Virus record (IMG/VR): IMGVR_UViG_3300027833_000012
Span: 48,257-112,256 of that record
Length of the DNA: 64,000 nt
Source of the DNA: a virus
Taxonomy: Duplodnaviria; Heunggongvirae; Uroviricota; Caudoviricetes
Strand: one strand, 5' to 3'
Every line of letters begins with the position of its first letter. Positions within the stretch are counted from its first letter, which is position 1. The notes below the pieces were generated by a model. It was not told where the DNA came from and did not search any database. It worked only from the letters and a program-made list of their open reading frames with translations. The position numbers and the translations under genes are program-made. Below are positions 19,631-62,488 of the stretch, in pieces.

Positions 19631-19638
19631 TTATTTTG

Positions 19639-19857: not shown

Positions 19858-19868
19858 TAATTATTTTG

Positions 19869-19940
19869 CGGACATGGAGAATTACGATATCTCGACCCTT
19901 CGGTTAACAACCGAACGCTCTTCCTCTGAGCTACATGTCC
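19869..19940 (-). tRNA. tRNA-Asn (anticodon GUU), copy 2
   Basis: Identical to copy 1. Confidence 0.7.
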
Positions 19941-19948
19941 TAATTTAG

Positions 19949-20034
19949 TAGAAAGACTGGGACTCGAACCCAGGGACCCCTTTTGAGGGCCTACGGTTTA
20001 GCAAACCGCTGCATTACCACTCTGCCACCTTTCC
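19949..20034 (-). tRNA. tRNA-Ser (anticodon GCU), type II
   Basis: GGAAAGG acceptor; D arm GCA/UGC with GG loop; anticodon arm GCGGU-UUGCUAA-ACCGU; long variable arm; T arm CUGGG-UUCGAGU-CCCAG. Confidence 0.8.
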
Positions 20035-20039
20035 AATTG

Positions 20040-20157
20040 TGTAAGAAATAGGATTCGAACCTATGAATGATTACCTTCTCTGATAATCTCAGTATAACTA
20101 ATGTTAACATACCATTTTCAAGTACCCTGGTGCTTTCAACCACTCAGCCATTCTTAC
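20040..20157 (-). tRNA. 118-nt tRNA-like gene (Ser/Leu-type D arm) with about 30 nt of extra internal sequence
   Basis: Perfect acceptor GUAAGAA/UUCUUAC; D arm GCU-GAGUGGUUGAA-AGC; T arm AUAGG-UUCGAAU-CCUAU; no canonical anticodon arm located; contains the palindrome AUGUUAACAU. Confidence 0.4.
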
Positions 20158-20179
20158 ATATCTTTATGAATATAATGTA

Positions 20180-20464
20180 CTAATTATTTTTCTTATATTC
20201 ATCAAAAAACCAACTATAATATTTTTTTGACTCCATAAAACCATAATCAGTTATATTAACATCTTCTTGATATATATTTTCTGTATGATTACAAAATGGA
20301 CAATCTTTAACAATAATCCCATCTAAATGTGCGTCAAACCCAGAATGAAACCCCATATTAACTAAAATTTCTTTATTACACTTATTACATTCACATACAC
20401 CAATTATAGAAGCTAATGGGTCATCTTTTAGCACTTCTTTAACATTTTTAACTAACTTTTCCAT
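20180..20464 (-). CDS. Cys-rich small protein (zinc-binding?) inside the tRNA island
   Basis: 94 aa; CECNKCNK ... CPFCNH. Confidence 0.45.
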   Translation of the reverse strand: MEKLVKNVKEVLKDDPLASIIGVCECNKCNKEILVNMGFHSGFDAHLDGIIVKDCPFCNHTENIYQEDVNITDYGFMESKKYYSWFFDEYKKNN

Positions 20465-20490
20465 ATTACAAAATTTTTACATTACTATGG

Positions 20491-20577
20491 TAGAGAGAAT
20501 GGGACTCGAACCCACACAGCGAATGAACGCTGAACAACTTTCCAAGCTGCTGCAATACCAATTATGCTTACCTCTCT
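20491..20577 (-). tRNA. tRNA-Ser (anticodon GGA), type II
   Basis: Acceptor AGAGAGG/UCUCUCU; anticodon arm GCAGC-UUGGAAA-GUUGU; variable arm CAGCG-UUCAUU-CGCUG; T arm GUGGG-UUCGAGU-CCCAU. Confidence 0.7.
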
Positions 20578-20696
20578 ATTTACGAGTTCTTAGTTAATAC
20601 CGAAGTATATTCTGGTGTTACTCGCCTTATATGTCACCTACTATTATTCGGTCACATACGTCACTAACCCTAAGATTAGTTGTTTATCGTACAAAA

Positions 20697-20774
20697 AGTC
20701 AAGGTAGTAGATAGAGTAATCGAAACCCATGGTGTAACCCATCCCTGGGTTTCAAGCCCAGTTTGTCACCTTGA
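20697..20774 (+). ncRNA. tRNA-like element with aberrant topology
   Basis: 7-bp GUCAAGG...CCUUGAC closing stem and T-arm-like CUGGG-UUUCAAG-CCCAG, with 7 extra nt between T arm and acceptor. Long internal hairpin GAAACCCA...UGGGUUUC. Strand uncertain. Confidence 0.25.
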
Positions 20775-20792
20775 CGGTACCTACTAATTTTG

Positions 20793-20885
20793 CGGAAGAA
20801 GTGGGATTCGAACCCACACGGCTTTTTACACCCCTTCGTTTTCAAGACGAGCACTGTTACCCAGAATCTTTCAGTTTATTCTTCC
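20793..20885 (-). tRNA. tRNA-Ser (anticodon UGA), type II with enlarged D loop
   Basis: Acceptor GGAAGAA/UUCUUCC; anticodon arm UCGU-CUUGAAA-ACGA; long variable arm; T arm GUGGG-UUCGAAU-CCCAC. Confidence 0.6.
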
Positions 20886-20898
20886 TTATTTTATTTCG

Positions 20899-20970
20899 CA
20901 CGTCATCCAAGATTCGAACTCGGAGCCTTCGGGTTGGAGCCGAAAATGTTAGCCGTTACACCAATGACGT
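20899..20970 (-). tRNA. tRNA-Trp (anticodon CCA)
   Basis: ACGUCAU-UG-GUGU-AACGGCUA-ACAU-U-UUCGG-CUCCAAC-CCGAA-GGCU-CCGAG-UUCGAAU-CUUGG-AUGACGU. Confidence 0.8.
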
Positions 20971-21049
20971 GTGTTTTAATTTTAATATGTCAATGAACTT
21001 TCTTTCATAAACCCCGACTGACTGTACAGTCGAGGTAAATATCATTATG

Positions 21050-21123
21050 TCAACCGTATGGGAATCGAACCCATGTTACTCGTTTCACAGACGAGCCACC
21101 TTTCCAATTTGGTGCAACGGAGG
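21050..21123 (-). tRNA. tRNA-His-like (anticodon GUG), imperfect acceptor
   Basis: D arm CACC/GGUG; anticodon arm CUCGU-CUGUGAA-ACGAG; T arm AUGGG-UUCGAUU-CCCAU. The acceptor CCUCCGU/ACGGUUG has two pyrimidine-pyrimidine mismatches. Confidence 0.5.
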
Positions 21124-22704: not shown

Positions 22705-22781
22705 TGGTGCGAATAGTGGGAATCGAACCCACTACATCCGAGTTTAGAAGTCGGTACCCCAACCATTAGGGTCTTACTCGC
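22705..22781 (-). tRNA. candidate amber-suppressor tRNA (anticodon CUA) with encoded CCA
   Basis: GCGAGUA acceptor pairs UAUUCGC, then A and CCA. D arm CCC/GGG with G18G19. Anticodon stem CCGA/UCGG plus C-C closing pair and 7-nt loop UUCUAAA: U33, CUA at 34-36, A37 A38, as in supF-type loops. T arm GUGGG-UUCGAUU-CCCAC. Confidence 0.55.
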
Positions 22782-23007: not shown

Positions 23008-23499
23008 TTAAAATTTACGTAATTTAGCGGTATATTCTGTCCCACCTATATATTTACCAGTATCATCTTTTTTCATTAATTTATAATTCCCCCAAATATT
23101 TTTTAAATCTTCTTTAGTATATAATTTAACTCCCATTTGCTGTTTAGAATATTGAGCACCAGTTAAATCAATAAATAAATCACCAACCTTTAATATTGTA
23201 TGTACTAAATATTTTTTATCATATTTTTTCCATTCTGGGTGAGCATCATCAGTTTCAAATTTAGGGTTTAATAAATCGATTAATATCAATTGGTTATCAT
23301 CATAACCTATCTCTAGTAAATGTTTATATAACATATTAGATACAGTGTCACATTGACCTTTTGATAAATCACATGAATTAATTAAATCACTTATTTTAAC
23401 ACCAGAATTTAAATTTAACTTTGTGAAATTATTAATGTCATTTATAAGTTTATCTTTATTTAATCCTTCCCTTAATAAATTTTGTATAAATTTTTTCAT
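23008..23499 (-). CDS. leader-family protein A1 (MKKFIQNLLREGLN...), putative capsid-targeted protein
   Basis: N-terminal 14 aa identical to the next gene, also at nucleotide level. Confidence 0.5.
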   Translation of the reverse strand: MKKFIQNLLREGLNKDKLINDINNFTKLNLNSGVKISDLINSCDLSKGQCDTVSNMLYKHLLEIGYDDNQLILIDLLNPKFETDDAHPEWKKYDKKYLVHTILKVGDLFIDLTGAQYSKQQMGVKLYTKEDLKNIWGNYKLMKKDDTGKYIGGTEYTAKLRKF

Positions 23500-23526
23500 A
23501 ATATATTTTTATTAAATATCTTCATC

Positions 23527-24813
23527 TTATTCTATTAAACCTGGGTTATATGAATTTGCTAAACGTTCTAGTTCATTTGCGTATTCTGGTATTATAATTT
23601 TCATAATATTAATATCTCCTTTAGGTATTATATTATTAAGACTAGTAGAAAGTAACTGAATTGCCTTATCCTCATCACCATCCACCATATCCATCCAAAG
23701 ACTTGCATCCTTAGTGTATTTTTTACCTTTAATACTTTTTATACCTCTTAATGCTCTAATTATATGCATATATTTCGATTTATAAGATTTACCTAAAAAA
23801 CCATTTAAATTTTTATCAATTTCTTTATATATTTTAGGTGTATAAATACCCTTAGTTTCGGATACAAACATATCAATACCCATTTTTTCAATAATATATT
23901 TCAAAGTCTCATATCTACCTTCAACTAAAACATGTCTATATATATCATCATTAATATCAGTACTTCTTATTTTTTCAAGTATTTCACTATCTGAGATATC
24001 TGATAAATCTTTTTTACTAATATTATTTACTTCTTCATGATATGTATCACTCCATTGTTCTATAAATTTAGAGAACTCTATATTATATGAACCATACATA
24101 TCAATTGGTGCTTTTATTTTTTTATCAGTACATAACACACCAACTACATACCTAGAAATTGGGTCTTGTATATTCCAATCTCCATCCTCAATTAAGTAAA
24201 ATATTACATCACCATCAAGTATTGAATCTCTAATTTGACCAGCACCACCTTCACCATCGTGCTGCCCTTTACTTGTCCAATTAGAATCATCATCTTTTAA
24301 ATCTTTCATATCTCTAAGGTCTTCACAAGATGTTATCCTAGGTTTTGCTGATTTACTAGCTAAATCATGTGGATGTCTCGATACTACAACATATAAATCA
24401 CTTCCTTCATCATTTGAACGATTTAATCTATCTAAGTATGAATTATAATTTTTAAGTAATTTAAAATCTAATTTATTTAATATTTTACTAATTTTAATAT
24501 TTTGATTACTTTTATTATTTTTAGCAATATTTTTATCCATATCAACAATAGAATAATTATATTTTTTAAGCATACTTGAAATATCATTATTTAGTTTTTC
24601 AATATTTTTAACATCAAATTTAAGTTTTGGTGTCTTCCTTGTTGGAGTGATTTGTTTACCAGTCTCCAAATTATAGTATAATCTATATACATTTTTACCA
24701 AAAATATCATCTAATTTACTTTTATCCCAAGTATTCCTTAATTGTTTACTTAAATTTAATGATATACTCTCATTCAAACCTTCCCTTAATAAATTTTGTA
24801 TAAATTTTTTCAT
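23527..24813 (-). CDS. leader-family protein A2 (MKKFIQNLLREGLN...)
   Basis: 428 aa; same leader; body unrelated to A1. Confidence 0.5.
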   Translation of the reverse strand: MKKFIQNLLREGLNESISLNLSKQLRNTWDKSKLDDIFGKNVYRLYYNLETGKQITPTRKTPKLKFDVKNIEKLNNDISSMLKKYNYSIVDMDKNIAKNNKSNQNIKISKILNKLDFKLLKNYNSYLDRLNRSNDEGSDLYVVVSRHPHDLASKSAKPRITSCEDLRDMKDLKDDDSNWTSKGQHDGEGGAGQIRDSILDGDVIFYLIEDGDWNIQDPISRYVVGVLCTDKKIKAPIDMYGSYNIEFSKFIEQWSDTYHEEVNNISKKDLSDISDSEILEKIRSTDINDDIYRHVLVEGRYETLKYIIEKMGIDMFVSETKGIYTPKIYKEIDKNLNGFLGKSYKSKYMHIIRALRGIKSIKGKKYTKDASLWMDMVDGDEDKAIQLLSTSLNNIIPKGDINIMKIIIPEYANELERLANSYNPGLIE

Positions 24814-25928
24814 ATTTCCATAAATTCTGGTACATTTTCACCAGGTGGGTTGTTTTCACTAACATATTTTATTAATTCTTTAAAATAATCTTCTAATTCT
24901 CTTTGATTATCTTCTTCACCATTTATGTCTTTTATTAATTTACTTGTTAAAACACTAACTGTTTCATTGTTTAAATTATTAGTAAGTTTTAATAAATCAC
25001 TAACATCAACTCTAAAATGATAATCACGTCTACTTTCGTATTCATTCATTAAGAAAATAACATAAACATCATCTAAAGTTAATTCATTAACATTAACATC
25101 TTCCTTGACCTCATAACCACTTACGTATAAAAGTTTTAATGAATCAATAAAATCTTCATTAATTTTTTCTTTTTTTACATCATTATATAAGTAATTTTGT
25201 AAATTACTTATATTATCAACGCTAATTATTTCATCAAAACCTTCACTTTTAGAAGGTTGTTCGTATGATTTAAACATTCTATCAAAAGCTTGTGGTGGTA
25301 TTGTTTTTGATTTACCCATTCGTTTAGCTGATTCTGCTCTATTATTTGCCACTTGTTTAATTAATTCTTCAGAACCTTTAAATTTAAAATCAACAGCAAT
25401 TTTAATATAATCACCTTCATTACCTTCGATTGCTTTTAATGCTCCTTTTCTTGAACCAGAATTCATATTAGTCATATCCACTACTATCACTTTACCACTA
25501 GGGTGTGCGTCTTTAACCCTTGAATTGAATAAATTTTGAACTTTATTATTTGCATTAATTACTTTATCAAAAACAGTGTCGGCCCATGTCATCCAGCTTG
25601 GTGATTCTATAACAGTACCATATTTTTCGTCAACATCACCTATTTTAGCATCTTCTGGTGGTGTTGAAAATAAATCATCATATGTCCAATTGTAAGTTGA
25701 AGCAACTTCTTCAACAATATCATCTCTACTAATTACATATGAATTAGGGAAATTACTTTTAATCCATGTTGATTTACCTACTGATGGTGGGCCTACTAAA
25801 ACTATTATTTTTCTCTTTTTTAACCCCCCATCTACCTCTTCACGTAAAAGACTATTTTGTTTAATATATCTTTGTTCTGAAAGTATATTAGCTTTCATCA
25901 TATTTTTAAATTTATCTAATTTTCTCAT
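24810..25928 (-). CDS. polynucleotide 5'-kinase (T4 Pnk kinase-domain-like) behind a 30-aa shared leader B
   Basis: VLVGPPSVGKSTW and FPNSYVISRDDIVEE parallel T4 Pnk GCPGSGKSTW and NPGFYNINRDDYRQ; DMTNMN ~ DTNLN; no DxDGT phosphatase domain; leader MRKLDKFKNMMKANILSEQRYIKQNSLLRE. Confidence 0.7.
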   Translation of the reverse strand: MRKLDKFKNMMKANILSEQRYIKQNSLLREEVDGGLKKRKIIVLVGPPSVGKSTWIKSNFPNSYVISRDDIVEEVASTYNWTYDDLFSTPPEDAKIGDVDEKYGTVIESPSWMTWADTVFDKVINANNKVQNLFNSRVKDAHPSGKVIVVDMTNMNSGSRKGALKAIEGNEGDYIKIAVDFKFKGSEELIKQVANNRAESAKRMGKSKTIPPQAFDRMFKSYEQPSKSEGFDEIISVDNISNLQNYLYNDVKKEKINEDFIDSLKLLYVSGYEVKEDVNVNELTLDDVYVIFLMNEYESRRDYHFRVDVSDLLKLTNNLNNETVSVLTSKLIKDINGEEDNQRELEDYFKELIKYVSENNPPGENVPEFMEI

Positions 25929-26002
25929 AACTTTTTTTATCTTTTTTTCTCATTAGTATTTTTTAATATTAACATATCCATGTTATAAATAAATATCATT
26001 AA

Positions 26003-26045
26003 AAACAAAAAAAAACCATACTTAAAATATGGTTTTTTTGTTTTT
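26003..26045. terminator. hairpin plus T-run terminator
   Basis: aaccatacttaaaatatggtt flanked by A-run and T-run. Confidence 0.55.
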
Positions 26046-26052
26046 AATGATA

Positions 26053-26679
26053 TTAATCTCTTTCTGGTGGGTCCATATCTGGACCTTCTGGTAGATAATA
26101 TTCTGAGTGTTCCTCTATATGATTTTCAATAGCATTACGTATTTTACTAAGTGTTTCAGAACTAACCTTAACTTCATGAATTATTTCTTGATTATCGTCA
26201 ATTTTATAGATTTCATGTATATAAAAATACACCTCAAACTCTGGATATTCCTCTGGCTCTTCAAGGGTTGATGCTCTATGACTACCAGACCAAGAACTTT
26301 CGTCATCGATTTTAACCAAATATCTACCACCATCATAAATCCATGGGTATTTATCTTTAGATGTTACATTACCAAAAGCAAAATAATATTCACCATCTTC
26401 TTTAATATAATCTTCTAAATAAACTTTATCGTTATGTATTACATTACCTAATTCATTTTCATTAATCCTTTTTATTTTATTAAAGGTCTTATTAAATGAT
26501 TCGATAAGATTACTTCTATTAACATTTAAATCTGTAACTAATTTTTTTGATGGATTTTCATCAACATCTTTATATTCAATTTCATTATTTTCCCTTAAAA
26601 GACTATTTTGTTTAATATGTCTTTGTTCTGAAAGCATATTAGCTTTCGTAATATTTTTAAATTTATCTAATTTTCTCAT
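26053..26679 (-). CDS. leader-B family protein (MRKLDKFKNITKANMLSEQRHIKQNSLLRE...)
   Basis: First about 30 aa and about 80 nt nearly identical to 24810..25928; body unrelated. Confidence 0.5.
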   Translation of the reverse strand: MRKLDKFKNITKANMLSEQRHIKQNSLLRENNEIEYKDVDENPSKKLVTDLNVNRSNLIESFNKTFNKIKRINENELGNVIHNDKVYLEDYIKEDGEYYFAFGNVTSKDKYPWIYDGGRYLVKIDDESSWSGSHRASTLEEPEEYPEFEVYFYIHEIYKIDDNQEIIHEVKVSSETLSKIRNAIENHIEEHSEYYLPEGPDMDPPERD

Positions 26680-26730
26680 AACTTAATTTTATTATAAATA
26701 TTATTAAAATATTAAAAAAATTATAAATTT

Positions 26731-28227
26731 TTATTTTAAGTGCGGTTTAATTGCGAATGATATATAACATCCTACCATAAATCCAAGTGTTGATGGAATT
26801 GGGAAAACAACATCCTTACCGAACTTTGTCTTATATTTTTCTCTATTAAGTATTAAGCTATCAAATCTTTTAAAGATGTAATATGATAACCCTATTAAAA
26901 TATAGTTACCAGAAGCTACCATTGCAATTGCTAACCCACTTAATAGTCCATGAGTAAAGTTTATAATAGAGTGTTTTGAAACTGTCTTAATAGTTTCGTT
27001 AGCATCCATCATTTTTCTTTCTTTTTCTATAATTTTTTTAATTTTCATTTCTCTTTTTTTTAATTTAGGGTAAATATATGACCTTTTTTTAGTTCTACCA
27101 AATATTTTATCAATAAATTTATCTTTCTCTAACGTTTTGATAACATTACCTAATTCTGGCCCTGGTTTCAAGTCGTATTTCTCTAATACTTCACCCCCAG
27201 TTACTGTTAATTCAAAAACAATGAATGCATTAACAAAATTCTCATCAAGATTAATAAGTTTAGAAAACTTAACAATTTGTTTAGGTGTTAAACCAGACCT
27301 TTTTTGTTCTTTTTTCATAGAAGAAACTTCAAAAATAGATTTATCATTAACAAAGTTAGTAAATAGAATTAAGAATTTAATACCTCTTATTTCCTCACTA
27401 CTATATTTTAATTTATTTAACGTTTTAACAATATTTAAAATATTATTATCACGTAAAAGAACAGTTAACAATAATATTGGGTCACGTTCTTCAATTAAGA
27501 AATTATTGACCATTAACCCTTTAAAGATATCCTTGAATAAGCCAAATTTATTAGTTAAAGTTAAAAAGTGAGTTACTGATTTAGAAGTCTTAAGACCCTT
27601 AAGGAATTCATCTCTAATTCGCTCACCAGAAACACCTTCTAATGAAGAATCTTTAATTAAAGCTTGTTCGGTATCAGTATGAAGGTTTGAACCGAATCTA
27701 CCAGCAAATCTGATTGCCCTTAGTATTCTAAGTCTATCCTCATTAAATCTTTCTTCAGCTTTACCTACTGTTCTTACCACACCGTTTTTAATATCTTCAA
27801 CACCACCCACTAAATCAACGATTTCATTAGTATCTATGTCAAAAAATAGTGCATTAATTGTTAAGTCACGTCTTAATACATCCTTATCAATGGTTGTAAA
27901 TTCTACTGAATCTGGTCTTCTACCAGATGATAGGTCACTTCTGAATGTAGCAATTTCGAATTCATTTGAGTCAGTGAATACGTTAATTACACCGAATGAC
28001 TTACCCGTTGGTAGAGTTCTGATACCAGCTACCTCCATCATTTCTTCTACTTTATCTGGTGTTGCGTCTGTTGCTAAATCCCAATCTTTAATTGGTTTGT
28101 TTAAAATAGAATCACGAACAGCACCACCAACAATGTAAAGTTTAAAACCATTACTTAAGAAAATATCCTTAATGGTTAAAATATCCTTTGGGATTGGTAG
28201 GTTAAATTTAATTCTTTTTGTGTTCAT
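26731..28227 (-). CDS. cca: CCA-adding enzyme / tRNA nucleotidyltransferase (class II) with C-terminal membrane-helix extension
   Basis: YIVGGAVRD (GGxVRD) and DWDLATD motifs; C-terminal about 90 aa hydrophobic. Confidence 0.7.
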   Translation of the reverse strand: MNTKRIKFNLPIPKDILTIKDIFLSNGFKLYIVGGAVRDSILNKPIKDWDLATDATPDKVEEMMEVAGIRTLPTGKSFGVINVFTDSNEFEIATFRSDLSSGRRPDSVEFTTIDKDVLRRDLTINALFFDIDTNEIVDLVGGVEDIKNGVVRTVGKAEERFNEDRLRILRAIRFAGRFGSNLHTDTEQALIKDSSLEGVSGERIRDEFLKGLKTSKSVTHFLTLTNKFGLFKDIFKGLMVNNFLIEERDPILLLTVLLRDNNILNIVKTLNKLKYSSEEIRGIKFLILFTNFVNDKSIFEVSSMKKEQKRSGLTPKQIVKFSKLINLDENFVNAFIVFELTVTGGEVLEKYDLKPGPELGNVIKTLEKDKFIDKIFGRTKKRSYIYPKLKKREMKIKKIIEKERKMMDANETIKTVSKHSIINFTHGLLSGLAIAMVASGNYILIGLSYYIFKRFDSLILNREKYKTKFGKDVVFPIPSTLGFMVGCYISFAIKPHLK

Positions 28228-28250
28228 AACTACTTTATTTAATTGTTAGA

Positions 28251-28262
28251 GTGCAAATATAG
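28251..28262 (-). promoter_or_regulatory. -7 promoter element (rc TACTATATTTGC)
   Basis: gcaaatatagta, 25-36 nt upstream of the cca start. Confidence 0.4.
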
Positions 28263-28387
28263 TAAATTATATTTAATAAAACAAAATTATTTAGCTAAAT
28301 TTCTTTTAATTAGTGTTTGTAGGTCATTAATATCCTTAGCTATGAAGTCAAATGTAAGTAAAATTTATATAATTAACAAATAAATTG

Positions 28388-28795
28388 TTAAATTTTTATA
28401 ACATAGGCAATAATAAAGGTATCACCTGATAAGATTCTAGATGTTATCCTATGGTGACCATCAATAGCATAATAAGTATCACCAATTAATATTAATGTTG
28501 CATTTGTGTCTTTACCAACACCCTTAACTTTATCTAAATTATTTAATGATATAAATCTTTGTGTAGGTGCAATATCTTTAAGATTAACTTGTTGTTTATC
28601 AGCATTTGATAAGTTATTTATTTTATCTTCAACTGAATTTACCTTGGCGTTAAAATCTGAATTATATGATGTCCCATGTGGGTTAGGTTTAGCAAATATT
28701 ACTCTAGTCCTAACTTTAGATTGACCATTAAATAATTTATCAACATTACTATCATATAAACCCTCTTTAAGTAATTTTTTAATTAAACTTTTCAT
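28388..28795 (-). CDS. leader-A family protein with ParB/Srx-like nuclease domain
   Basis: MKSLIKKLLKEGL leader; IDGHHR motif. Confidence 0.5.
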   Translation of the reverse strand: MKSLIKKLLKEGLYDSNVDKLFNGQSKVRTRVIFAKPNPHGTSYNSDFNAKVNSVEDKINNLSNADKQQVNLKDIAPTQRFISLNNLDKVKGVGKDTNATLILIGDTYYAIDGHHRITSRILSGDTFIIAYVIKI

Positions 28796-28796
28796 A

Positions 28797-29981
28797 TTAT
28801 TTTATATTAAACATGTTAGATTCATCTTCTCTCCTAGATTTATGACCTTCATAACTAACATTAGTTGTTTTTATTTTTTCCTTAGCTTCTTTATACTTAC
28901 CATTCTTTACTAATTGTATAAATTCTGTATTTCTAAAACCTTGTCTACCCATATTAAAGGCCATGGATGTCATAGCATCATACATACCTTGTGTTATATC
29001 AAATTCAATACCCTTATTTTTCCAATCTTCCAATATATCATCAATAGTAGCTTTAGCCTTACTTAAATCTTGTTTAAATAATTCATTAGCGGTTTTAATA
29101 TCTATTTTTTGATTTTTCTTAAAGCTTGAAGATTTAATTGGTTCAGCATGTCCCCAACCAACGGTAACTTTACCATCACCCAATTCATATGCTCTTAAAA
29201 CTGGTTCACCCTTTCTCTTAGCCGAACCTTCATGATTTTTAAGCATATTTATTAAATTCGAAGATACTTTATTTGGAGTATTAAATTTTGTGTCAACAAC
29301 ATCCTTAATATTTGTTTTTAAAGAATTTGTATCAACTTTTTTGCTAGGTACCTTTATTTCTTTAGAATCTAAAGCATTACCCATATCACCTATTAAATTA
29401 TTAAAGGAAGTTAAGCCTATAACACCAATTAAGGTTGTTATAGCATACTTCTTCAACTTCTTTTTTATATTTTTGGGTAATCTATCACTTTTATTATTTA
29501 ATGCGTTTAAATAGCTCTTAGCATCTTCTTCACTACTTATATCATTAACTGATTTATCGATATTATCCTTAGCAACCTCCCAGGATATTGTTGGAGATGA
29601 ATCGTCTGAATCGTAATCAAATTGACTTACAGCTTCGTTTAAAAATTTATTCTCATATAATGGTAAATCTTTATGTTTAAACTTTGCACCTAGGTCGGTT
29701 TTCATTGATGGTACATATTGATATTCAGGGAATTCATTCTTTATGTATTTAACCATCCTTGAACCTAAACCTTGTCTCCTTAATTCTGGTCTAACTCCAA
29801 TATCACTTATTGTTATTTCACCATCATAAAGTACATATTCAGTAACACCAACTAGTTCACCATTTAATGATAATTCTAGTTGGTAGTTATGTTGGTCAGA
29901 ATATGAATCCATATGTCTGTTATAATATGTTATTTTACCTTCAAGTTCTTCTCTAAGTAATTTTTTTATAAAACCTCTCAT
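28797..29981 (-). CDS. leader-A family protein: GNAT acetyltransferase plus C-terminal lysozyme (GH24-like) fusion
   Basis: MRGFIKKLLREELE leader; GNAT motif RRQGLGSRM; C terminus DAMTSMAFNMGRQGF...KEAKEKI resembles the T4 lysozyme NMVFQMGETG region. Confidence 0.6.
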   Translation of the reverse strand: MRGFIKKLLREELEGKITYYNRHMDSYSDQHNYQLELSLNGELVGVTEYVLYDGEITISDIGVRPELRRQGLGSRMVKYIKNEFPEYQYVPSMKTDLGAKFKHKDLPLYENKFLNEAVSQFDYDSDDSSPTISWEVAKDNIDKSVNDISSEEDAKSYLNALNNKSDRLPKNIKKKLKKYAITTLIGVIGLTSFNNLIGDMGNALDSKEIKVPSKKVDTNSLKTNIKDVVDTKFNTPNKVSSNLINMLKNHEGSAKRKGEPVLRAYELGDGKVTVGWGHAEPIKSSSFKKNQKIDIKTANELFKQDLSKAKATIDDILEDWKNKGIEFDITQGMYDAMTSMAFNMGRQGFRNTEFIQLVKNGKYKEAKEKIKTTNVSYEGHKSRREDESNMFNIK

Positions 29982-29982
29982 T

Positions 29983-31128
29983 TTAATGTACTGCTAAAAA
30001 TGTCTTGTGTACATCCTTACGTTGTGCACTTATATCTGTATCACCAGTAGGTAACACTATCACATCATATTGTAAAGGTTTACCTTCATTAGGTGGTAAT
30101 TCATCATGATATTTTATTCTATTTATATCGATATTATAAGAGTCAGATACTCTTTTTCTAAGTTCTTCTTTTCCCCCATCAACAAATATAGGTAACCCTT
30201 TTTCATCCTTAACATAGTGAGGACCTTTTTTCTCAAAAATGTCGTTAAATAACTTCTTTGGAATTATGTCGGAATATTTGTTTTTATCTAAATCAACTAA
30301 TTTTAATTCTTTTGGTGCTGAACCCTTAGAGAAGTTCATAATGAAATCATCACTAGCTAGGTTAACAAATTTAGCTTGTTTAGTGTAAGCATATGATTTA
30401 ACATCAAAACCAGCATTAACCAAATCTTCAGTAACTTTCTTTGCTATATCAAAATACTTTTGACTAAAGAAATCACCAGCATCATTCCACCTCATAACTA
30501 ATTTAGGTACTGAACCACTTCTTCTACCTTGTCTTTTTAATTTGAAGGCTAGAGGTTCTAATTCATCCATAATCATATTGTAGTATTCTTCTGGGTCATT
30601 CATTAATAAGTTAAGTCTTCTAATCAATTTAAGAACTTTACCATCATTCATACCATAGAAACCTTTTCTAGCATAACAAACTAGTTGACAAGAACCAGCA
30701 CCTGGACAAGTATTTATGTGGTAAAATTTATCACCAGCTTCATCATATATGATACCCTTTATGGCTGGTAAACCAGTATTAACTGTCATTTGTTCACCAC
30801 CATCATCACTCTTCTCCATCTTAGGGTTTTGGTCGAATATTCGTTTAGGTGGTGTAGTTATTAATTCTTTAAATTTAGCCACATCTAATTCACCATCACC
30901 AGTTAAATTCTTTTCAATTTGTTTTCTAGTTAAAATAGCATCCTTAGTACCACGCTTATCTCTATCTTTAGAAGATTGATTAAGCCTGTCTAATTCCTTA
31001 TTCATATCATTAGCTAATTGTTGTGGTGAAACACAACTTGCCTTAGTATCTGAAAAATCACCTTCCCAATCAACCTCATTAATTAAGTTTAAACTTTCTC
31101 TAAGTAACCCCTTTATAAATTTTTTCAT
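29983..31128 (-). CDS. leader-A family protein (MKKFIKGLLRESLN...), function unknown
   Basis: ORF track starts 17 codons upstream at 31179; the internal Met gives the conserved leader; Cys cluster CPGAGSCQLVC. Confidence 0.5.
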   Translation of the reverse strand: MKKFIKGLLRESLNLINEVDWEGDFSDTKASCVSPQQLANDMNKELDRLNQSSKDRDKRGTKDAILTRKQIEKNLTGDGELDVAKFKELITTPPKRIFDQNPKMEKSDDGGEQMTVNTGLPAIKGIIYDEAGDKFYHINTCPGAGSCQLVCYARKGFYGMNDGKVLKLIRRLNLLMNDPEEYYNMIMDELEPLAFKLKRQGRRSGSVPKLVMRWNDAGDFFSQKYFDIAKKVTEDLVNAGFDVKSYAYTKQAKFVNLASDDFIMNFSKGSAPKELKLVDLDKNKYSDIIPKKLFNDIFEKKGPHYVKDEKGLPIFVDGGKEELRKRVSDSYNIDINRIKYHDELPPNEGKPLQYDVIVLPTGDTDISAQRKDVHKTFLAVH

Positions 31129-31165
31129 ATTAATAACTTTATTTACATATAAATATCTATTAAAC

Positions 31166-31200
31166 ACAAAAAAACCCAATAGTTTTACCTATTGGGTTTA
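31166..31200. terminator. hairpin terminator
   Basis: aaacccaatagttttacctattgggttt. Confidence 0.5.
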
Positions 31201-31283: not shown

Positions 31284-32690
31284 CTATTTATCTTTGTTAG
31301 TTAATTGCATTAACATAAGAGTTTCATTTGAAATACTTGAACTTCCTTTACCATCACCACCAACAATCATAGTATTAGGTACAGCTCTTTTAGCTCTAGC
31401 TTCTTCTTTAGCAACCTCAGCATTTAATTCCATTTCTAATCTCTTTTCTGGCGTAATACCCGCTTGAACTTTCTTTTTAATTTCATAAGACTCAGCATCT
31501 GCCATAACTCTAACTCTTTGTGCTTGTTTTTTAGCAGCCGCAAGTAAATTAGTTTCTTCCTGTTCTTTATAAGACGCTTCTTTAGCTTTAGTGTCAGCCG
31601 AAATAGTTTTTTCTAATTGGATTTTTTCTAATTTAACCCTAGTTTCAGCTTTTTCACGCTCACCCTTAGCAATTGCCTTTTGTGTTGCATAATATTCTTT
31701 CTCAGCTTCTTGTTTTTCAAGTTGAGTCTGGGCTACTTGTTCTTTTTGGTCAGTTAACCTCTCATCAAAGCTTTTTTCCCAATCAATATTAGTTACAGCC
31801 GCTTGTTGAACTGTTAAACCATACCTCTTTAATGAATTAGAACTATCTCTAATTGGGTCACCATTACTATCTCTTCTAATTCTATATTTCTTTTCACGTT
31901 TATTACCATTACTAACTTTACCCTTGGCAACTGTTTTTGTTGTATCATTCGCAACTATTGAAACTTCTTCAATGTCTGAATAAACTTCTTCGGTTAAATA
32001 CATACCGTTTTCCATTTGGTCTTTTAAGTAATAATCGAATTGAGAAGATGCTCCAGAAATATAATCTTGTGCATCCATTAATTTACATGTATTCTTTAAC
32101 GCTTGTTCATAAACTGGGTATATCCTAGCCTTAACTAATTTGAGTTCACTTCTATTTTTATCCACCATAGTTAAAAAACCTTCTTCATCTGAATAATTAA
32201 TAGAAACAATTAAAGATGCGGCAACATCAGCCTTAATTGCATCAGCAAACTCCCTTTGCTGGGCTTTTCGAAAGTAAATCCCCTCACTTTCTGGTAATGG
32301 CATAAATTTACCATCTTCATCTTTTTCTAGGATTACATCTTGCATTGCAATTTCAAAAGATACTGGTATTGTATTCCCCCAGAATTTTAATTTTAACCCT
32401 TGTGTTGTTACGGCTTTATCACCACCCCATAAATACTGAATTGATGTTGCTGTTCCAGACTTATTGATGAAGAACATACCACTAATACACATTAAAAATA
32501 CACCTAAACCAACAAACATAAGTGTTTTTTTACCAGTGTAATTTAATAAAAAAGGTGGGCTCGCCCTTAAGGTTATTTTTTCACCAAAACGATTAGTGGA
32601 AACCACATCTTCTTCCCTTAAGTTGATAAATTTTGTTACTACATATAAAGCAACCGATAATAGAATAATTAATACTCCTAATACTGTCAT
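31284..32690 (-). CDS. SPFH/band-7 (flotillin-like) membrane protein
   Basis: N-terminal TM helices; long EA/KE-rich coiled coil typical of flotillin/HflK. Confidence 0.5.
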   Translation of the reverse strand: MTVLGVLIILLSVALYVVTKFINLREEDVVSTNRFGEKITLRASPPFLLNYTGKKTLMFVGLGVFLMCISGMFFINKSGTATSIQYLWGGDKAVTTQGLKLKFWGNTIPVSFEIAMQDVILEKDEDGKFMPLPESEGIYFRKAQQREFADAIKADVAASLIVSINYSDEEGFLTMVDKNRSELKLVKARIYPVYEQALKNTCKLMDAQDYISGASSQFDYYLKDQMENGMYLTEEVYSDIEEVSIVANDTTKTVAKGKVSNGNKREKKYRIRRDSNGDPIRDSSNSLKRYGLTVQQAAVTNIDWEKSFDERLTDQKEQVAQTQLEKQEAEKEYYATQKAIAKGEREKAETRVKLEKIQLEKTISADTKAKEASYKEQEETNLLAAAKKQAQRVRVMADAESYEIKKKVQAGITPEKRLEMELNAEVAKEEARAKRAVPNTMIVGGDGKGSSSISNETLMLMQLTNKDK

Positions 32691-33350: not shown

Positions 33351-33619
33351 AATAAAGCTTCTAAATAAATTGACTTATGTGGTTTACTTAAACCTTTTAC
33401 AATATCGACAATATCAGTAAATGATTTTGTGATATCATTAGTTTCTGAACATTCATTATGAATTTCTATATTACCACCATCCATGATTCGACAAAAATTG
33501 TATTCACATTTCTTATCAATTTCTTTCTCTAATAAAGTGAAATAGTCTTCTTTATTTGTCTCAGGTAATAAGACAACTATAACACTAAACGCTTGTACTC
33601 CTTCTTGTATTTTTAACAT
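33347..33619 (-). CDS. hypothetical protein
   Basis: 90 aa. Confidence 0.4.
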   Translation of the reverse strand: MLKIQEGVQAFSVIVVLLPETNKEDYFTLLEKEIDKKCEYNFCRIMDGGNIEIHNECSETNDITKSFTDIVDIVKGLSKPHKSIYLEALL

Positions 33620-34497
33620 ATTAAACTTAAATTTCTAAATTCTTTAATTAACTCATTTAAATCACCATTATTATTTATAACATAGTCAAACTCATAATCA
33701 TCTAATGCTATTTCTGAAGGGTGATTCAATTTTTCACTCATTTCTTTATCATGACCCAATAACCAAGCTAGAATCCCACCAGAATAACTTAAATATTTAT
33801 TAGAAGAAGCATAAAGTTTCCATAACTTAGGAAATCTTAAATCAATAGGTCTTTCAACCCTAATTAAAATGCCACCCCTATCTTTAATAGCTTGAGCTTC
33901 GTTAGGAAATCTAACATCTGTTATTATCCATTTAGGTTTAATCAAATCAAAACCTTGTTGAGGAGGGTTACTTAATAATAAAGTATTATTATTAATTTTT
34001 ACAGCTTTATAATCAGCAAATAAAGCCTTTACCCAAATATCTGGGTGTATAATTTGTCTACCACATTCAGTACCTATAAGTTGCATGATTTTTCTAGGTG
34101 TTAGTTTAACTAATGTTACTTCTTCCTCGTTTTTAGGGAATCCATCGTTATAATTAAATTTAAAACCATTACCTTCTTCATAATACCACCACTCTTCACC
34201 AAGTTCTTTTTCCTTGAAAACTCTATCTTCTAATTGTTCTCTAGTGCAACCAATAAGTATACAAACAATATCTTTAAGTTTATCACCATATTTCTTGTTT
34301 AAGAAACCATCAGACCTTGTATAACTAATATTGGGGTTGAATTCCCCTCTTAGTTGGTCTGTAAAATGAGAATCATCATCCTTATAATTAAGAAGTAGTA
34401 ATTCCCTAGCGATTATTTGACCTAGAGTATCTTTACCAGAACCTATCTTCCCACTAATACCTATTAAATTTGGTATTGTTTTTGTTTTTTTATCCAT
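33613..34497 (-). CDS. deoxynucleoside monophosphate kinase (T4 gene 1-like)
   Basis: LIGISGKIGSGKDT ~ T4 FLSGVKRSGKDT; WIITDVRFPNEAQAIKDRGGILIRVERP ~ T4 YIVPDTRQDHEMDAARAMGATVIHVVRP. Confidence 0.75.
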   Translation of the reverse strand: MDKKTKTIPNLIGISGKIGSGKDTLGQIIARELLLLNYKDDDSHFTDQLRGEFNPNISYTRSDGFLNKKYGDKLKDIVCILIGCTREQLEDRVFKEKELGEEWWYYEEGNGFKFNYNDGFPKNEEEVTLVKLTPRKIMQLIGTECGRQIIHPDIWVKALFADYKAVKINNNTLLLSNPPQQGFDLIKPKWIITDVRFPNEAQAIKDRGGILIRVERPIDLRFPKLWKLYASSNKYLSYSGGILAWLLGHDKEMSEKLNHPSEIALDDYEFDYVINNNGDLNELIKEFRNLSLIC

Positions 34498-35301: not shown

Positions 35302-35532
35302 TTAGTTTTCACTCTTTCTCCTAAATGTTTTGAACACAGATGCCCCTAACATTGAACCAGCAAATATCAACATAGAATCAAACATGTCGTTATTTATGTC
35401 GTAAAAATCAAAACCATCAACTACAAAGGCTATAAATGTTAATAGCCCAGCTAAGATACCCATAGTTTTTTTTGATGAAAATTTTTCATCAGATTTGTCT
35501 TCCGTAAAAATGTCTTTAATAAATTGTTTCAT
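35302..35532 (-). CDS. small membrane protein
   Basis: 76 aa; two TM helices. Confidence 0.4.
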   Translation of the reverse strand: MKQFIKDIFTEDKSDEKFSSKKTMGILAGLLTFIAFVVDGFDFYDINNDMFDSMLIFAGSMLGASVFKTFRRKSEN

Positions 35533-49291: not shown

Positions 49292-50353
49292 TTATTTATT
49301 TAATTTATTATCATTTTCACTTAATAGTGATTTTATTTTATCTATCCCATCTCTAAATGAAATATTTTCATTAACACTACCAGTGTCTTCTGATTTATAA
49401 CCCATAAGGTGTTTCATGTGTAACATGTCCTCATTAAGTGTAACTTTATTAGAAGCTTTTGTTACCACTGCTTTACCTTCTGACAATGTTCCTTTCCATA
49501 CCATTTGATATTTCTCATCCCCATCTGTCATTTGGAATACTTTATTATCTATCTTATAAGATTCAGGTATTAAATCTAAAGCGTTTGATAACCCATTAAA
49601 TGGTTTTTTGAATGTTAACCTTTTAATTTTATTTTCACTTATAGCAACCTGTTTTTGTTTTTTATTTTTACCTCTTGGAATAGCAACATCACCCATACCA
49701 TCGTAATTTTGAGCATCAGATTCTTTATCTACCCTAGACTTTATACGCTTACTTAAATTCTTACCGAATTCTGGACCCGTGAACCCAGCTTGGTCAGCCG
49801 TAATAACATTACCCCATTCTGGGTTATTACCCATCCTAGACGAACCCTCTAAAGCTTCTTTAGCTCTTTCACTATAAGTTTCATCTGGTTTGTTATCAAA
49901 TTTAGTCATCTCCAAACCGTTTAAAGTTTCTAATTCATCATGAATTTCTTTTTGTTCTTTAGAATTTTCATATTTCTTAGTAACTTCATCATTCTCCTTT
50001 TCATCCTTTGGAGCTTTATCATACTCAGACATTTTAGAACCAACTTCTTTTTGGTATTCTTTGTTGAATTTTTCACTATCTTTTTGAACCTTTTCAGTAT
50101 CAGATAAACCTTTAGGTTTTTTATCCTCATTAATTTGAGAAATTTTCCAATTACTACCAGTATCACCAATAGTGAAGAAATGTCCATCATCACTTTTAAA
50201 CCTACCACCTTCTAAATTATCAATATAAGTGTAGTTATCACCCTTATCGTTAGGACCATTATTAGCGTTTCTGATATTGTACTTAACACCCTTAACGAAC
50301 TTTTCAGTTATGAAAGTTTCATTTAAATATTTTTTTATTTTATTTTTATTCAT
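49292..50353 (-). CDS. hypothetical protein sharing a C-terminal domain with the preceding gene
   Basis: KRLTFKKPFNGLSNALDLIPESYK...HMKHLMGYKS aligns with KRLRFKKPFNGVGKALQLIPENYK...HMKHLMGYKS. Confidence 0.45.
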   Translation of the reverse strand: MNKNKIKKYLNETFITEKFVKGVKYNIRNANNGPNDKGDNYTYIDNLEGGRFKSDDGHFFTIGDTGSNWKISQINEDKKPKGLSDTEKVQKDSEKFNKEYQKEVGSKMSEYDKAPKDEKENDEVTKKYENSKEQKEIHDELETLNGLEMTKFDNKPDETYSERAKEALEGSSRMGNNPEWGNVITADQAGFTGPEFGKNLSKRIKSRVDKESDAQNYDGMGDVAIPRGKNKKQKQVAISENKIKRLTFKKPFNGLSNALDLIPESYKIDNKVFQMTDGDEKYQMVWKGTLSEGKAVVTKASNKVTLNEDMLHMKHLMGYKSEDTGSVNENISFRDGIDKIKSLLSENDNKLNK

Positions 50354-51735: not shown

Positions 51736-51990
51736 TTATACTGATTTATTTTTTAATGTTGTAGTCCAAAACCCACGCTTAACCCAAAGAGTCTTGTAAA
51801 GTTGTGTAATTACATTCTTAGTTATTTCAACAACCTTATCTTCTAAGGCTTTTTCATTTTTAATTCTATCTTTAACTATTTTTTCAATTTTACTTTTAAA
51901 ATCATTAGTATCTAAATAACTTTTAACCTCTTTTTTAACATCAGATTTAGATATCTCTTCCTTTAGTATTTTTCTTATTGAATTTTTCAT
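51736..51990 (-). CDS. hypothetical protein
   Basis: 84 aa; Lys-rich. Confidence 0.35.
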   Translation of the reverse strand: MKNSIRKILKEEISKSDVKKEVKSYLDTNDFKSKIEKIVKDRIKNEKALEDKVVEITKNVITQLYKTLWVKRGFWTTTLKNKSV

Positions 51991-52024: not shown

Positions 52025-52050
52025 TAAAAGCCCTATTCGGGCCTTTTTTT
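52025..52050. terminator. hairpin plus T-run terminator
   Basis: aagccctattcgggcc then ttttttt. Confidence 0.5.
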
Positions 52051-52480
52051 AGAGTACTAATTTAGCACTATTAGGTTTTATACTTAATTCATATTCTATC
52101 AACCCATCATCCCTATAATCAAGTTTACCGAAATCAACCTCAACAATTTCACACTTATTTATTTCCCATATCTCAAGTACAACCCCAGTTGGGTCTAACA
52201 AAGATAATTGAATGTCAAAATTTGAACCTTCAGTTAAGGTTTTATATACTTCTTTTATTGTTGAATTCGTAACGGTATCTCTTAGTCTTATTTTCATTAA
52301 ACTAATTTCATACTTTTTCCAGAAATTCCACCATTTAGTTTTTTTAAATTTAGGTCTTTCAAACGAGCTAACCAATTGTTCATTCAAACCATCATCACCC
52401 ATTATTTTTAGTACCCAAAGATTTGATTTCTTAGGTTCATAATGAACCACCTTTGTATTATAAGTTTCCCCTATTTTCAT
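52049..52480 (-). CDS. hypothetical protein
   Basis: 143 aa. Confidence 0.4.
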   Translation of the reverse strand: MKIGETYNTKVVHYEPKKSNLWVLKIMGDDGLNEQLVSSFERPKFKKTKWWNFWKKYEISLMKIRLRDTVTNSTIKEVYKTLTEGSNFDIQLSLLDPTGVVLEIWEINKCEIVEVDFGKLDYRDDGLIEYELSIKPNSAKLVL

Positions 52481-61747: not shown

Positions 61748-62488
61748 ATGAAGGATTTCATTAAACAAAAATTAAGAGAAGATTTAGAGTATCATCACGC
61801 TTCGGATGCTACTAAAGATGAATATGTGATAAGTGAAAATAATAATAGTTTTACCTTATATCATGGTAGTCAACATAAGATAAATTCAAAAGAGGGTTTT
61901 TTAACAAAATACGTTTTAAGTGGTGAAGGGTTAAATGCATTTGGTTGGGGTTTATATTTTACTGATGTAATTGAAATTGCTAAATTTTATTCTAGAAATA
62001 ATAGGGCTAATGAGCTTAATAAATTTTTAACATTAGCTAATGACTTTGGTATTGATTCTGTTGTTGATTTTATAGAATTTATTGATATGCAAGATGGTTG
62101 GGGGGAAATTTCTAAAGAAACTGAAGTTTTTCTTAAGAAGAATAAAAATAAGAGTATAAGTAAATTATTTAAAGGTGGTATACTTTATACTGTTCAAATA
62201 ACCCCGTCTAAAAATAAGACTCTTGATTGGTTTGAATCTATTGAGTCTAGTGAATTAGAATTACTTAACATTAATAATGATAACATGACTGGGAAGGATG
62301 TTTATAATTATTTAATAAATGAGTTGGGGAGTGATAAATTAGCTTCAAAATACCTATATAATAATGATTATTTTGCTATTAAATACCCAACTGAATCTTA
62401 CGTTAAAGTTAAAACTGACACAAAGGGTTATAATTATGTAATTTTTAATGAAAAAGATATCAAAATAACTAATATAGAAAATCAATAA
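61748..62488 (+). CDS. leader-A-like protein (MKDFIKQKLREDLE...), plus strand
   Basis: N terminus follows the leader-A pattern. Confidence 0.45.
   Translation: MKDFIKQKLREDLEYHHASDATKDEYVISENNNSFTLYHGSQHKINSKEGFLTKYVLSGEGLNAFGWGLYFTDVIEIAKFYSRNNRANELNKFLTLANDFGIDSVVDFIEFIDMQDGWGEISKETEVFLKKNKNKSISKLFKGGILYTVQITPSKNKTLDWFESIESSELELLNINNDNMTGKDVYNYLINELGSDKLASKYLYNNDYFAIKYPTESYVKVKTDTKGYNYVIFNEKDIKITNIENQ

Follow-up and report, generated by a model that had tools for sequence, protein, structure and literature searches.

In phage T4, proteins reach the inside of the prohead by way of a capsid-targeting sequence (CTS), a short N-terminal leader that ends at a cleavage site of the prohead protease gp21, which cuts after L/I-x-E (PMC9026906). 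The first 10 residues of the internal protein (IP) IPIII suffice for capsid targeting; within this leader residues 4 and 7 are important to targeting, and processing is affected by residues 8 and 10 (PMC9026906; see also PMC3012670). An Asp at P1 stops processing in T4 and leaves targeting intact. According to a review, the CTS may be a means by which T4-like phages package a variety of proteins (PMC9026906), and the T4 ADP-ribosyltransferase Alt is packaged, trimmed by gp21 and injected (PMC9026906, PMC5512222). In the phages phiKZ, 201phi2-1 and SPN3US the propeptides of ejection and inner-body proteins are removed by the gp21-related proteases gp175 and gp245 (PMC9026906, PMC5694885), and for polyvalent proteins, injection of their ADP-ribosyltransferase (ART) domains has been predicted (PMC5512222). 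Here we describe a family of genes in a 64,000-nucleotide stretch of tailed-phage DNA (hereafter the window; positions 48,257 to 112,256 of the IMG/VR record IMGVR_UViG_3300027833_000012) which open with one of two conserved N-terminal leaders, a short one of 11 residues or a long one of 30, and continue into unrelated bodies. We consider it probable that both leaders are capsid-targeting propeptides, an analogue of the T4 CTS and internal proteins whose variable cargo is mostly enzymatic.

The short leader opens six genes, five on the minus strand (A, B, E, F and G in Table 1) and one on the plus strand (H, starting at 61748), with the consensus M[KR]x[FL]Ixx[LK]L[RK]ExL over the six and M[KR]x[FL]I[QK]xLL[RK]E[GES]L over the five of the cluster. 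An earlier note, made on this DNA from its letters, had listed seven such open reading frames (ORFs). The family itself is borne out, since a degenerate pattern of the leader DNA has five matches in the window, each at the ATG of a minus-strand leader gene, and none in 100 dinucleotide-preserving shuffles, but the clear members number six, and the positions given in the note, although they point to the right loci, are 3' ends, the cluster genes lying on the minus strand. M1, I5, L9, E11 and L13 are invariant among the six, which agrees with the claim that the leader ends in the motif of the T4 prohead protease. Aligned as the note had proposed, the leaders have 71% nucleotide identity over codons 1-13, falling to 34% over codons 14-53. 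The near-identity at the DNA level that it had described is found between A and B, with 35 identical nucleotides, and not elsewhere, 50 of the 115 codon differences in the leaders being synonymous. Because the differences are so often synonymous, conservation acts on the protein. Past the leader the bodies do diverge, as had been said: compared with one another by blastp without it, they yield nothing below E = 0.09. A cause at the level of RNA or of an operator was considered for the conserved start and rejected, since the differences are largely synonymous and the DNA upstream is not conserved for most leader genes.

The short leader is amphipathic, its helical moment (1.1-1.75) exceeding the interior mean of 0.94; its mean hydropathy lies between -0.05 and -1.3, and charged residues occur all along the 11 residues. 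In the AlphaFold2 (AF2) models of G and H it forms a detached helix, with a predicted local distance difference test score (pLDDT) below 50. When we looked for Sec, Tat and lipoprotein signal features, no hydrophobic core was found in the short leader, and a reading as signal peptide was rejected on that ground; the genuine signal or lipoprotein N-termini of the window (16102 and 55598) look unlike the leaders. The start of G was placed, as in the earlier note, at the internal ATG at 31128, since the ORF extended to a TTG runs into a terminator-like hairpin.

The second leader was absent from the earlier note, as were three weaker candidates starting at 51990, 35532 and 50353. It spans 30 residues at the start of C and D (MRKLDKFKN..KAN.LSEQR.IKQNSLLRE) and likewise ends in LLRE. 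Among the weaker candidates, I is a probable member and begins 58 nt past the stop of the gp19-like tail-tube gene, J is a possible member with a homologue conserved in a relative (L009; L with a number is our label for an IMG/VR locus that was read), and the third, a 353-aa ORF that is also a possible member, has no PHROG match. The window has three exact copies of a 14-mer (TATTTATAATAAAA), all at a distance of 21 nt upstream of leader-type genes (D, I and H), and copies with two mismatches precede the gp19-like gene (52480) and three ORFs (starts 55598, 50353 and 35532) by 20-25 nt. Terminator-like hairpins stand before several copies of the 14-mer. On this modest sequence evidence the 14-mer is a candidate for a phage-specific, perhaps late, promoter that leader genes share with a virion gene. 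A scan for sigma-70 promoters gave 68 sites where 74 were expected and is uninformative because the DNA is so AT-rich; a sigma factor of the sigma-70 family, comprising regions 1.2, 2 and 4, is also encoded by the phage.

We searched IMG/VR with the degenerate short-leader DNA pattern and read 80 of the resulting loci. The pattern is found in 103 IMG/VR stretches, all of them AT-rich, among them contigs of the window relatives L005, L008, L009 and L010; 84 of the 86 matches read are genuine ORF openings, and the 87 bodies (the six of the window included) fall into 44 unrelated families. The long-leader pattern is found in 70 stretches, where it opens 81 ORFs with bodies of 34 families, and its residues 21-30, which the pattern leaves unconstrained, are strongly conserved (Y21 in 86%, L22 in 90%, K25 in 93% and E30 in 91%), with conservation collapsing at residue 31, directly after the ending [LIV]28-x-E30. 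A second L-x-E often follows the first, as in LLRE.LLNE. Both leaders combined precede at least 77 body families in the sample read, and one family occurs with either of them. The kinase and the CCA-adding enzyme carry a short leader, a long leader or none in different phages: a kinase related to C has the short leader in L005 and the long one in L279, and the orthologues of the CCA-adding enzyme in L005 and L009 bear short-type leaders (MKQTIKQILREGIINE... and MKDFIRNKVRKGLINE...). The leader thus behaves as a portable module.

The same arrangement recurs with other leaders in more distant relatives. A homologue of G is found on more than 100 IMG/VR contigs of up to 353 kb, and its N-terminus is specific to the lineage and always abuts a conserved (L/I)NE(V/I)DW; the local leader of each lineage is also found on other, unrelated ORFs of the same locus. 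Examples (an arrow marks the cleavage-type site, here and below) are MKNKDQILLE↓N on seven or eight ORFs of L039 and L040, MKF..L...IME↓ on five ORFs of L074, MKKDSKQRLFEVM.RLDKTFKPKLNE in L050-L078, which ends LNE↓, and a long MRRFDK... leader in L005 and L009. All of these lineage-specific leaders end in [LIM]-x-E. Pairs of ORFs from the same locus share 12-mers at identical offset 76 times at the N-terminus and once at offsets 30 or 45, and blastp-short gives 109 same-locus pairs of at least 25 bits for N-terminal 35-mers, compared with 3 for the control residues 45-80. When 90 non-redundant leader ORFs are aligned, only M1 and E11 reach 90% conservation. A Pfam census of the same ORFs counts 13 GP88 proteins, 3 GNAT, 2 AAA_33 and 2-3 PARP/ART proteins, with single cases of a CCA enzyme, lysozyme, cupin, SprT-like, Mor, NTP transferase and 2H phosphoesterase; most of the 90 have no Pfam domain. 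Full-text literature searches with the leader strings KKLLRE and LLAEQRYL returned no paper, and the literature searched gives no account of leaders like these from marine phages distantly akin to T4.

Leader genes often lie by the structural genes of T4-type virions, as we found with T4 gp18 to gp24 as phmmer queries against the loci of relatives. Relatives that bear GP88, the family of G, encode a T4-type sheath, tube, portal, gp21 protease and gp23, and in L075 and L079 the GP88 gene is itself part of the head module, about 1 kb downstream of gp23. Among the 80 short-leader loci, gp23 is present in 26, gp21 in 17 and the gp20 portal in 4, and the gene order at those with head genes is portal, two small genes, gp21, scaffold, gp23 and then the leader gene or genes. 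Taken from the other side, 61 of 80 loci centred on gp23 of the clade hold gp21, and the short-leader ORFs on the gene strand all start 0-5 kb downstream of gp23 (14 of 14) and none upstream. A single 306-kb contig (3300032268_000832) encodes gp21, gp23 and leader genes and, in addition, a 41% homologue of a protein from just past the window end. The long leader has a place of its own, starting 21-207 nt past the gp19 stop in 24 of the 27 loci that hold gp19. In many relatives (L223-L287, for example L224 and L239) the slot directly after gp19 holds a long-leader gene whose body is specific to the contig, and this slot looks like a hot spot of cargo exchange.

The protease and its known substrate are recognisable in this clade. 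Its gp21 homologues match T4 gp21 with E-values down to 2e-21, and in the two that were aligned (L075, L068) the stretches G(E/T)L(N/D)H and SSR(G/A)LG align with T4 gp21, while LLTE↓T in the gp23 of the clade aligns with the T4 maturation site FLTE↓A. A tblastn search with the clade gp23 matched 2588 phage records, most of them from T4-type phages, whose hosts include Escherichia, Synechococcus and Klebsiella. Among cultured phages, Flavobacterium phage immuto has the nearest capsid protein (40% identity), and no obvious common leader was seen in its head module. In T4 itself, IPII and IPIII start MKTYQEFIAE↓A and gp24 starts MAKINELLRE↓S, a site that we take to be cleaved. Amphipathic stretches that resemble the leaders and bear L/I-x-E sites are present in the gp22-like scaffolds of the clade at L170 5335, L182 10113 and L123 3300 (SILEE↓A, KEILRSVAKEE↓I and VKE↓SL; one scaffold sequence reads MADK..SILEEA..KEILRSVAKEEI..), and it is possible that these are docking partners of the leaders, or sequences which the leaders mimic.

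We hypothesise that each leader would fold as a short amphipathic helix and dock the attached protein on the scaffolding core during prohead assembly, after which a gp21-type prohead protease would cut behind the invariant Glu that closes [LIV]-x-E, at residue 11 of the short leader and residue 30 of the long one (LLRE↓ in both). The mature protein would then remain free within the head and exit with the DNA at the next infection, where it could act ahead of any phage gene expression. Docking, cleavage, encapsidation and ejection are thus what we infer for the leader proteins from the pattern of the genes, and the cargo of the window phage would comprise an ART-fold enzyme (H), a GNAT-lysozyme (F), a P-loop kinase (C) and a GP88 protein (G), together with A, B, D and E.

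The bodies themselves are diverse. In F, Pfam matches confirm the fusion of a GNAT acetyltransferase and a lysozyme that the earlier note had read from the sequence; the lysozyme domain is not required for lysis, given the separate endolysin candidate of the window (46228-47097). The body of C is a P-loop kinase of the polynucleotide kinase-like family AAA_33 by Pfam and PHROG. G, described in the note as a cysteine-cluster protein, does have three invariant cysteines (C141, C147 and C151) and belongs to Pfam GP88; it is the most widely conserved cargo, with 2898 homologues at E <= 1e-10. The AF2 model of G, for which the alignment was built from database proteins, has a pLDDT of 80.6 and gave no convincing match to solved folds, and tblastn of G hit only Streptomyces phage Gilgamesh (28% identity). 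No family match was found for A, B, D or E in Pfam or PHROG, and peptide patterns of B found no relative in IMG/VR; the body of D is acidic. The assignment of E to ParB/Srx found no confirmation: there is no Pfam match at E <= 0.01 and none among the sequences of solved structures, and E has two homologues in 5.8 billion proteins, so that the call comes down to the string IDGHHR. Comparing the sequences of G, E and H with solved structures gave nothing useful.

For H, the direct Pfam match to ART-PolyVal/PARP is weak and below threshold (1.4e-4). PF18760 (ART-PolyVal) is nevertheless found in 5 of 12 homologues of H, which are 36-49% identical to it, and the residues H39 and Y70 are invariant, with D or E at position 235. 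The AF2 model of H (pLDDT 75.6) matches the catalytic folds of diphtheria toxin and PARP, its best match being chain 9k3a_B (E = 6.9e-4), which belongs to the pre-ejectosome located inside the capsid of cyanophage A4 (PMC12002296). Taken together, sequence and model make H a predicted ART-PolyVal enzyme of the H-Y-E/D type.

Set beside T4, the locus has in common with the CTS and internal proteins a conserved leader of about 10 residues (MKTYQEFIAE↓ in T4, MKKFIQNLLRE↓ here) on unrelated hypervariable proteins, and within it the Met-Lys start, an aromatic residue at position 4, a hydrophobic pair and the L/I-x-E end. The cluster lies between a deoxynucleoside monophosphate (dNMP) kinase gene and tRNAs, much as T4 ipI lies between gene 1 and tRNAs, and the head module of the clade (gp20/gp21/gp22/gp23) is of the T4 type (PMC9026906, PMC3012670). 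The resemblance of the leaders is however one of pattern, pointing to analogy or very remote divergence with no demonstrable homology; the likeness to the T4 targeting sequence that the earlier note had seen holds for the plan and the L-x-E end. Unlike T4, the phages here have a second, 30-residue leader class, cargo that reaches 48 kDa and is often enzymatic and not uniformly basic (T4 internal proteins are about 8-20 kDa), and many leader genes within late structural operons, after gp23 or gp19; moreover, the T4 system is established by experiment, while this one is known from sequence alone.

H, an ART-fold protein with a propeptide-like N-terminal leader ending in L-x-E, is by analogy a putative functional counterpart comparable to T4 Alt. 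The two differ in family, H belonging to the H-Y-E/D ART-PolyVal family and Alt to the R-S-E Alt/VIP2 clade, and Alt is much larger than the 246-aa H. The phiKZ-type phages offer a likeness as jumbo phages that package many proteins and have Glu-specific proteases and redundant propeptide sites (PMC9026906, PMC5694885), to which the repeated L-x-E in the leaders here is a parallel. On the other hand, their motif is S/A/G-x-E, in contrast to L/I/V-x-E here and in T4, the head genes of the present clade are T4-type, and a single common short leader is not reported for them (PMC9026906, PMC5694885). With the polyvalent proteins (Iyer et al. 2017) there is agreement in the predicted delivery of effectors with the DNA and in an overlapping repertoire of ART-PolyVal, lysozyme, GNAT and SprT-like domains (PMC5512222). 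Those proteins, though, combine 2-15 domains in one giant polypeptide, whereas here the genes are separate and leader-tagged, and only F has two enzyme domains. The anti-restriction Dar proteins of phage P1 are similar in being accessory proteins that enter the capsid as the head is formed and leave it upon infection (PMC9024508, PMC12810830). Dar loading follows a hierarchy of partner proteins and is not known to use one common cleavable N-terminal tag. The principle is known from T4, and what is unusual here is its breadth (at least 77 families), the second leader class and the enzymatic cargo.

Several observations weigh against capsid-targeting propeptides and have to be set beside those above. 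Neither the window nor about 40 kb of its flanks yielded the gp21 or gp23 of the window phage, so that its own head genes were not reached and the link to the protease rests on phages with the same leader. PHROG and Pfam gave no useful match for 14 large ORFs that lie upstream of the window (L086, L092), and a gp23 query from L165, a contig of the same sample, returned 80 relatives that did not include the nearest-relative contigs of the window, so that direct linkage of the window phage to gp23 failed. The motif carries little information, [LIVM]-x-E occurring within the first 40 residues of about half of the window ORFs, and thus only its fixed site at the leader end is informative; positions 1-13 of the IMG/VR short-leader logo, moreover, are fixed by the search pattern. 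The window leader is not recognisably homologous to MKTYQEFIAE, the mature bodies (7-48 kDa, pI 4.6-9.7) are not uniformly small and basic like the T4 internal proteins, and F has a weakly hydrophobic segment resembling a signal-anchor-release element (residues 180-198) that would be odd in a capsid-held protein. Among the cargoes, the kinase and the CCA enzyme are of kinds that T4 employs without packaging them; the window CCA gene has no leader, and no vestigial leader was found when we looked upstream of it. Finally, the long-leader genes gather by tail and not head genes.

This last point bears on an explanation that we regard as unlikely, in which the leaders are assembly tags and the proteins are either transient core or scaffold components, degraded or expelled like T4 gp67, gp68 and gp22, or, especially for the long leader, parts associated with the tail. 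It would fit the long-leader ORFs that directly follow gp19 in nearly all gp19-holding loci, the place of gene I next after the gp19-like gene of the window, the many bodies that are small, without domains and of acidic low complexity, and the L/I-x-E sites that T4 core proteins also contain (PMC9026906). Enzymes such as the ART, GNAT, lysozyme, kinase, CCA, SprT-like and cupin bodies would however make little sense as disposable scaffold, and the bodies, with their 77 families, are hypervariable in a way that structural proteins are not and can, within one family, take either leader. It is a little less probable still that the leader has nothing to do with the capsid but serves, for instance, as a membrane or compartment helix, a docking tag for a chaperone or for ClpP, or an inhibitory propeptide, and that L-x-E is a coincidence. 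The amphipathic character of the leader, the ClpP and transfer-messenger RNA (tmRNA) that the phage encodes, the cytoplasmic action of the CCA enzyme and kinase and the low information of L-x-E would all be compatible with this. Yet leader genes are specifically placed within T4-type head and tail operons, the Glu is invariant precisely where conservation stops, in both of the unrelated leader classes as well as in the lineage-specific leaders, the lack of a hydrophobic core leaves no Sec, Tat or lipoprotein signal, and for targeting there is an experimental precedent in T4 (PMC9026906).

The common 5' ends could also be footprints of recombination or shuffling, the boundary of a mobile cassette with no function at the level of the protein, and the stretch of identical nucleotides in A and B, the variable slots that leader genes occupy and the conserved 14-mer upstream of three of them might be taken in this sense. 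We hold this to be very improbable, considering that the amino acids are kept across 50 synonymous codon differences, that upstream DNA is mostly not conserved, that the leader is kept across contigs whose GP88 orthologues are just 40-65% identical, and that more distant relatives have analogous yet different leaders. Every comparative test that was run favours a T4-like targeting propeptide on variable cargo, as the earlier note had proposed, with packaging, cleavage and injection as the steps that would follow.

Beyond capsid-targeting propeptides as such, one can think of both leaders as searchable labels for the whole injected arsenal of a very large clade of uncultured marine T4-like jumbo phages, with packaged RNA-repair enzymes in the arsenal and leader classes that address different virion compartments; this is a tentative extension, and we have considerable doubt about it. 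The short leader would address the head core, since its genes follow gp23, and the long leader a site close to the portal or tail, since its genes follow gp19. An RNA-repair arsenal made up of the CCA-adding enzyme, the polynucleotide kinase (PNK)-like kinase and the 2H phosphoesterase may counter tRNA-cleaving host defences before any expression of phage genes.

Table 1. Leader genes and other features of the window. Minus-strand genes start at their higher coordinate; the arrow marks the cleavage-type site; positions are those of the window unless another locus is named.
Feature	Position	Strand	Length	Leader or N-terminus	Remarks
A	23008..23499	-	163 aa	MKKFIQNLLRE↓GL; MKKFIQNLLREGL	mature 17.5 kDa, isoelectric point (pI) 8.4; body without assigned function
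B	23527..24813	-	428 aa	identical to that of A; MKKFIQNLLREGL	start overlaps stop of C by 4 nt
C	24810..25928	-	372 aa	long leader MRKLDKFKNMMKANILSEQRYIKQNSLLRE↓E	P-loop kinase
D	26053..26679	-	208 aa	long leader MRKLDKFKNITKANMLSEQRHIKQNSLLRE↓N
CCA-adding tRNA nucleotidyltransferase	26731..28227	-		no leader	inside cluster
E	28388..28795	-	135 aa	MKSLIKKLLKE↓GL; MKSLIKKLLKEGL	orphan basic body with string IDGHHR
F	28797..29981	-	394 aa	MRGFIKKLLRE↓EL; MRGFIKKLLREEL	GNAT acetyltransferase, then T4-type lysozyme (residues 262-387)
G	29983..31128	-	381 aa	MKKFIKGLLRE↓SL; MKKFIKGLLRESL	second site LINE↓VDW; Pfam GP88 body
H	61748..62488	+	246 aa	MKDFIKQKLRE↓DL; MKDFIKQKLREDL	predicted ART-PolyVal-family ART-fold body
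I, probable member	51736..51990	-	84 aa	MKNSIRKILKE↓E; MKNSIRKILKEE
J, possible member	35302..35532	-	76 aa	MKQFIKDIFTE↓D	hydrophobic C-terminal half
353-aa ORF, possible member	49292..50353	-	353 aa	MNKNKIKKYLNE↓T	two-mismatch 14-mer upstream
14-mer TATTTATAATAAAA	26687-26700	-
14-mer TATTTATAATAAAA	51998-52011	-
14-mer TATTTATAATAAAA	61727-61740	+
Terminator-like hairpin	31172..31199	-			11-bp stem and T run; ends upstream unit before promoter-like region of G
gp19-like tail-tube family protein	52049..52480	-			hidden Markov model (HMM) from T4 gp19 and relatives, E = 1.8e-10
dNMP kinase	33613-34497				DNMK, 38 bits
SPFH/Band 7 protein	31284-32690	-
tmRNA/ClpP/FKBP group	36502-36868, 37297-38034, 35613-36359	all -			tmRNA tag DNSFDIDVNFLENASVEVESGEVAFA; ClpP Pfam 1.4e-57
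CTA-anticodon tRNA	22705-22781	-			amber suppressor type; ARAGORN label Pyl
Main 10-tRNA block	18793-21123
Sigma-70 family factor	55619-56461	-			regions 1.2, 2 and 4
Amidase_2 protein with PG_binding_1	46228-47097	-			likely endolysin candidate
Amidase_2 protein	53735-54349	-			near tail-tube-like gene
RNA-repair/handling genes, dense	289-8127, 24810-28227, 41970-43433
Four overlapping ORFs	39467-41080	-			different frames, several TTG starts
ORF with weak gp23 match	40222-40824				lineage gp23 HMM, E = 1.6e-4
PspA/IM30 protein, ligand-gated ion-channel-like protein and 429-aa PARP-domain protein	L089 13384-14082, 17129-18418				past low-coordinate window end

The source is an uncultured marine phage, AT-rich and distantly like T4, whose genome measures at least 222 kb: the GC content of the window is 26-32%, with nearly all genes on the minus strand, the exact H protein is found on a contig of 222,253 bp, and proteins of the window phage recur on contigs of marine metagenomes, TARA samples among them. 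A megablast search with the 10-kb cluster against cultured phages gave no match. The window encodes 11 tRNAs and one tmRNA. T4-like functions of the phage include RnlA, DNA ligase, an SbcC-like gp46 homologue, a primase, a possible RuvC-like resolvase and the dNMP kinase; the gp19-like gene is the marker of T4-type virion genes within the window. Past the high-coordinate end, transcriptionally upstream, follow gp25-like and other baseplate genes and ribonucleotide reductase.

The cluster is flanked by the dNMP kinase gene and the tRNA cluster, with a gene for an SPFH/Band 7 protein directly upstream of it. Immediately downstream lies the gene of the CTA-anticodon tRNA, separate from the main tRNA block. 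Past the low-coordinate window end, in the L089 region, there are the PspA/IM30 and ion-channel-like proteins and also a 429-aa PARP-domain protein without a leader. The tmRNA gene adjoins a full-length ClpP gene and one for an FKBP-type prolyl isomerase, neighbours which are found again in the relatives L005 and L009, and the group could be a phage-borne module for trans-translation and proteolysis. Genes for RNA repair and handling are dense in three parts of the window and comprise an Rnl2-like RNA ligase, RnlA, an ATP-dependent DNA ligase, an HD domain protein, a metallophosphoesterase, the PNK-like kinase, the CCA-adding enzyme and a match to phrog_850 (annotated 'RNA-binding protein'), which suggests a heavy investment of the phage in tRNA and RNA repair. 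Two Amidase_2 proteins are encoded, the first of them the likely endolysin. The four overlapping ORFs at 39467-41080, one of which weakly matches the gp23 model of the lineage, could be frameshifted or fragmentary genes, or the gp23 match could be spurious.

If the leaders are capsid-targeting propeptides, a simple leader search would yield a catalogue of the proteins that abundant uncultured marine phages deliver at infection, and these proteins, mostly of unknown function, would be prime candidates for anti-defence and host-takeover factors. It would likewise provide new short tags for loading foreign proteins in phage capsids. The packaged enzymes would be much larger than the internal proteins of T4, and the CTS principle, which was shown experimentally in T4, would prove to be general and evolutionarily plastic across distant T4-like lineages.

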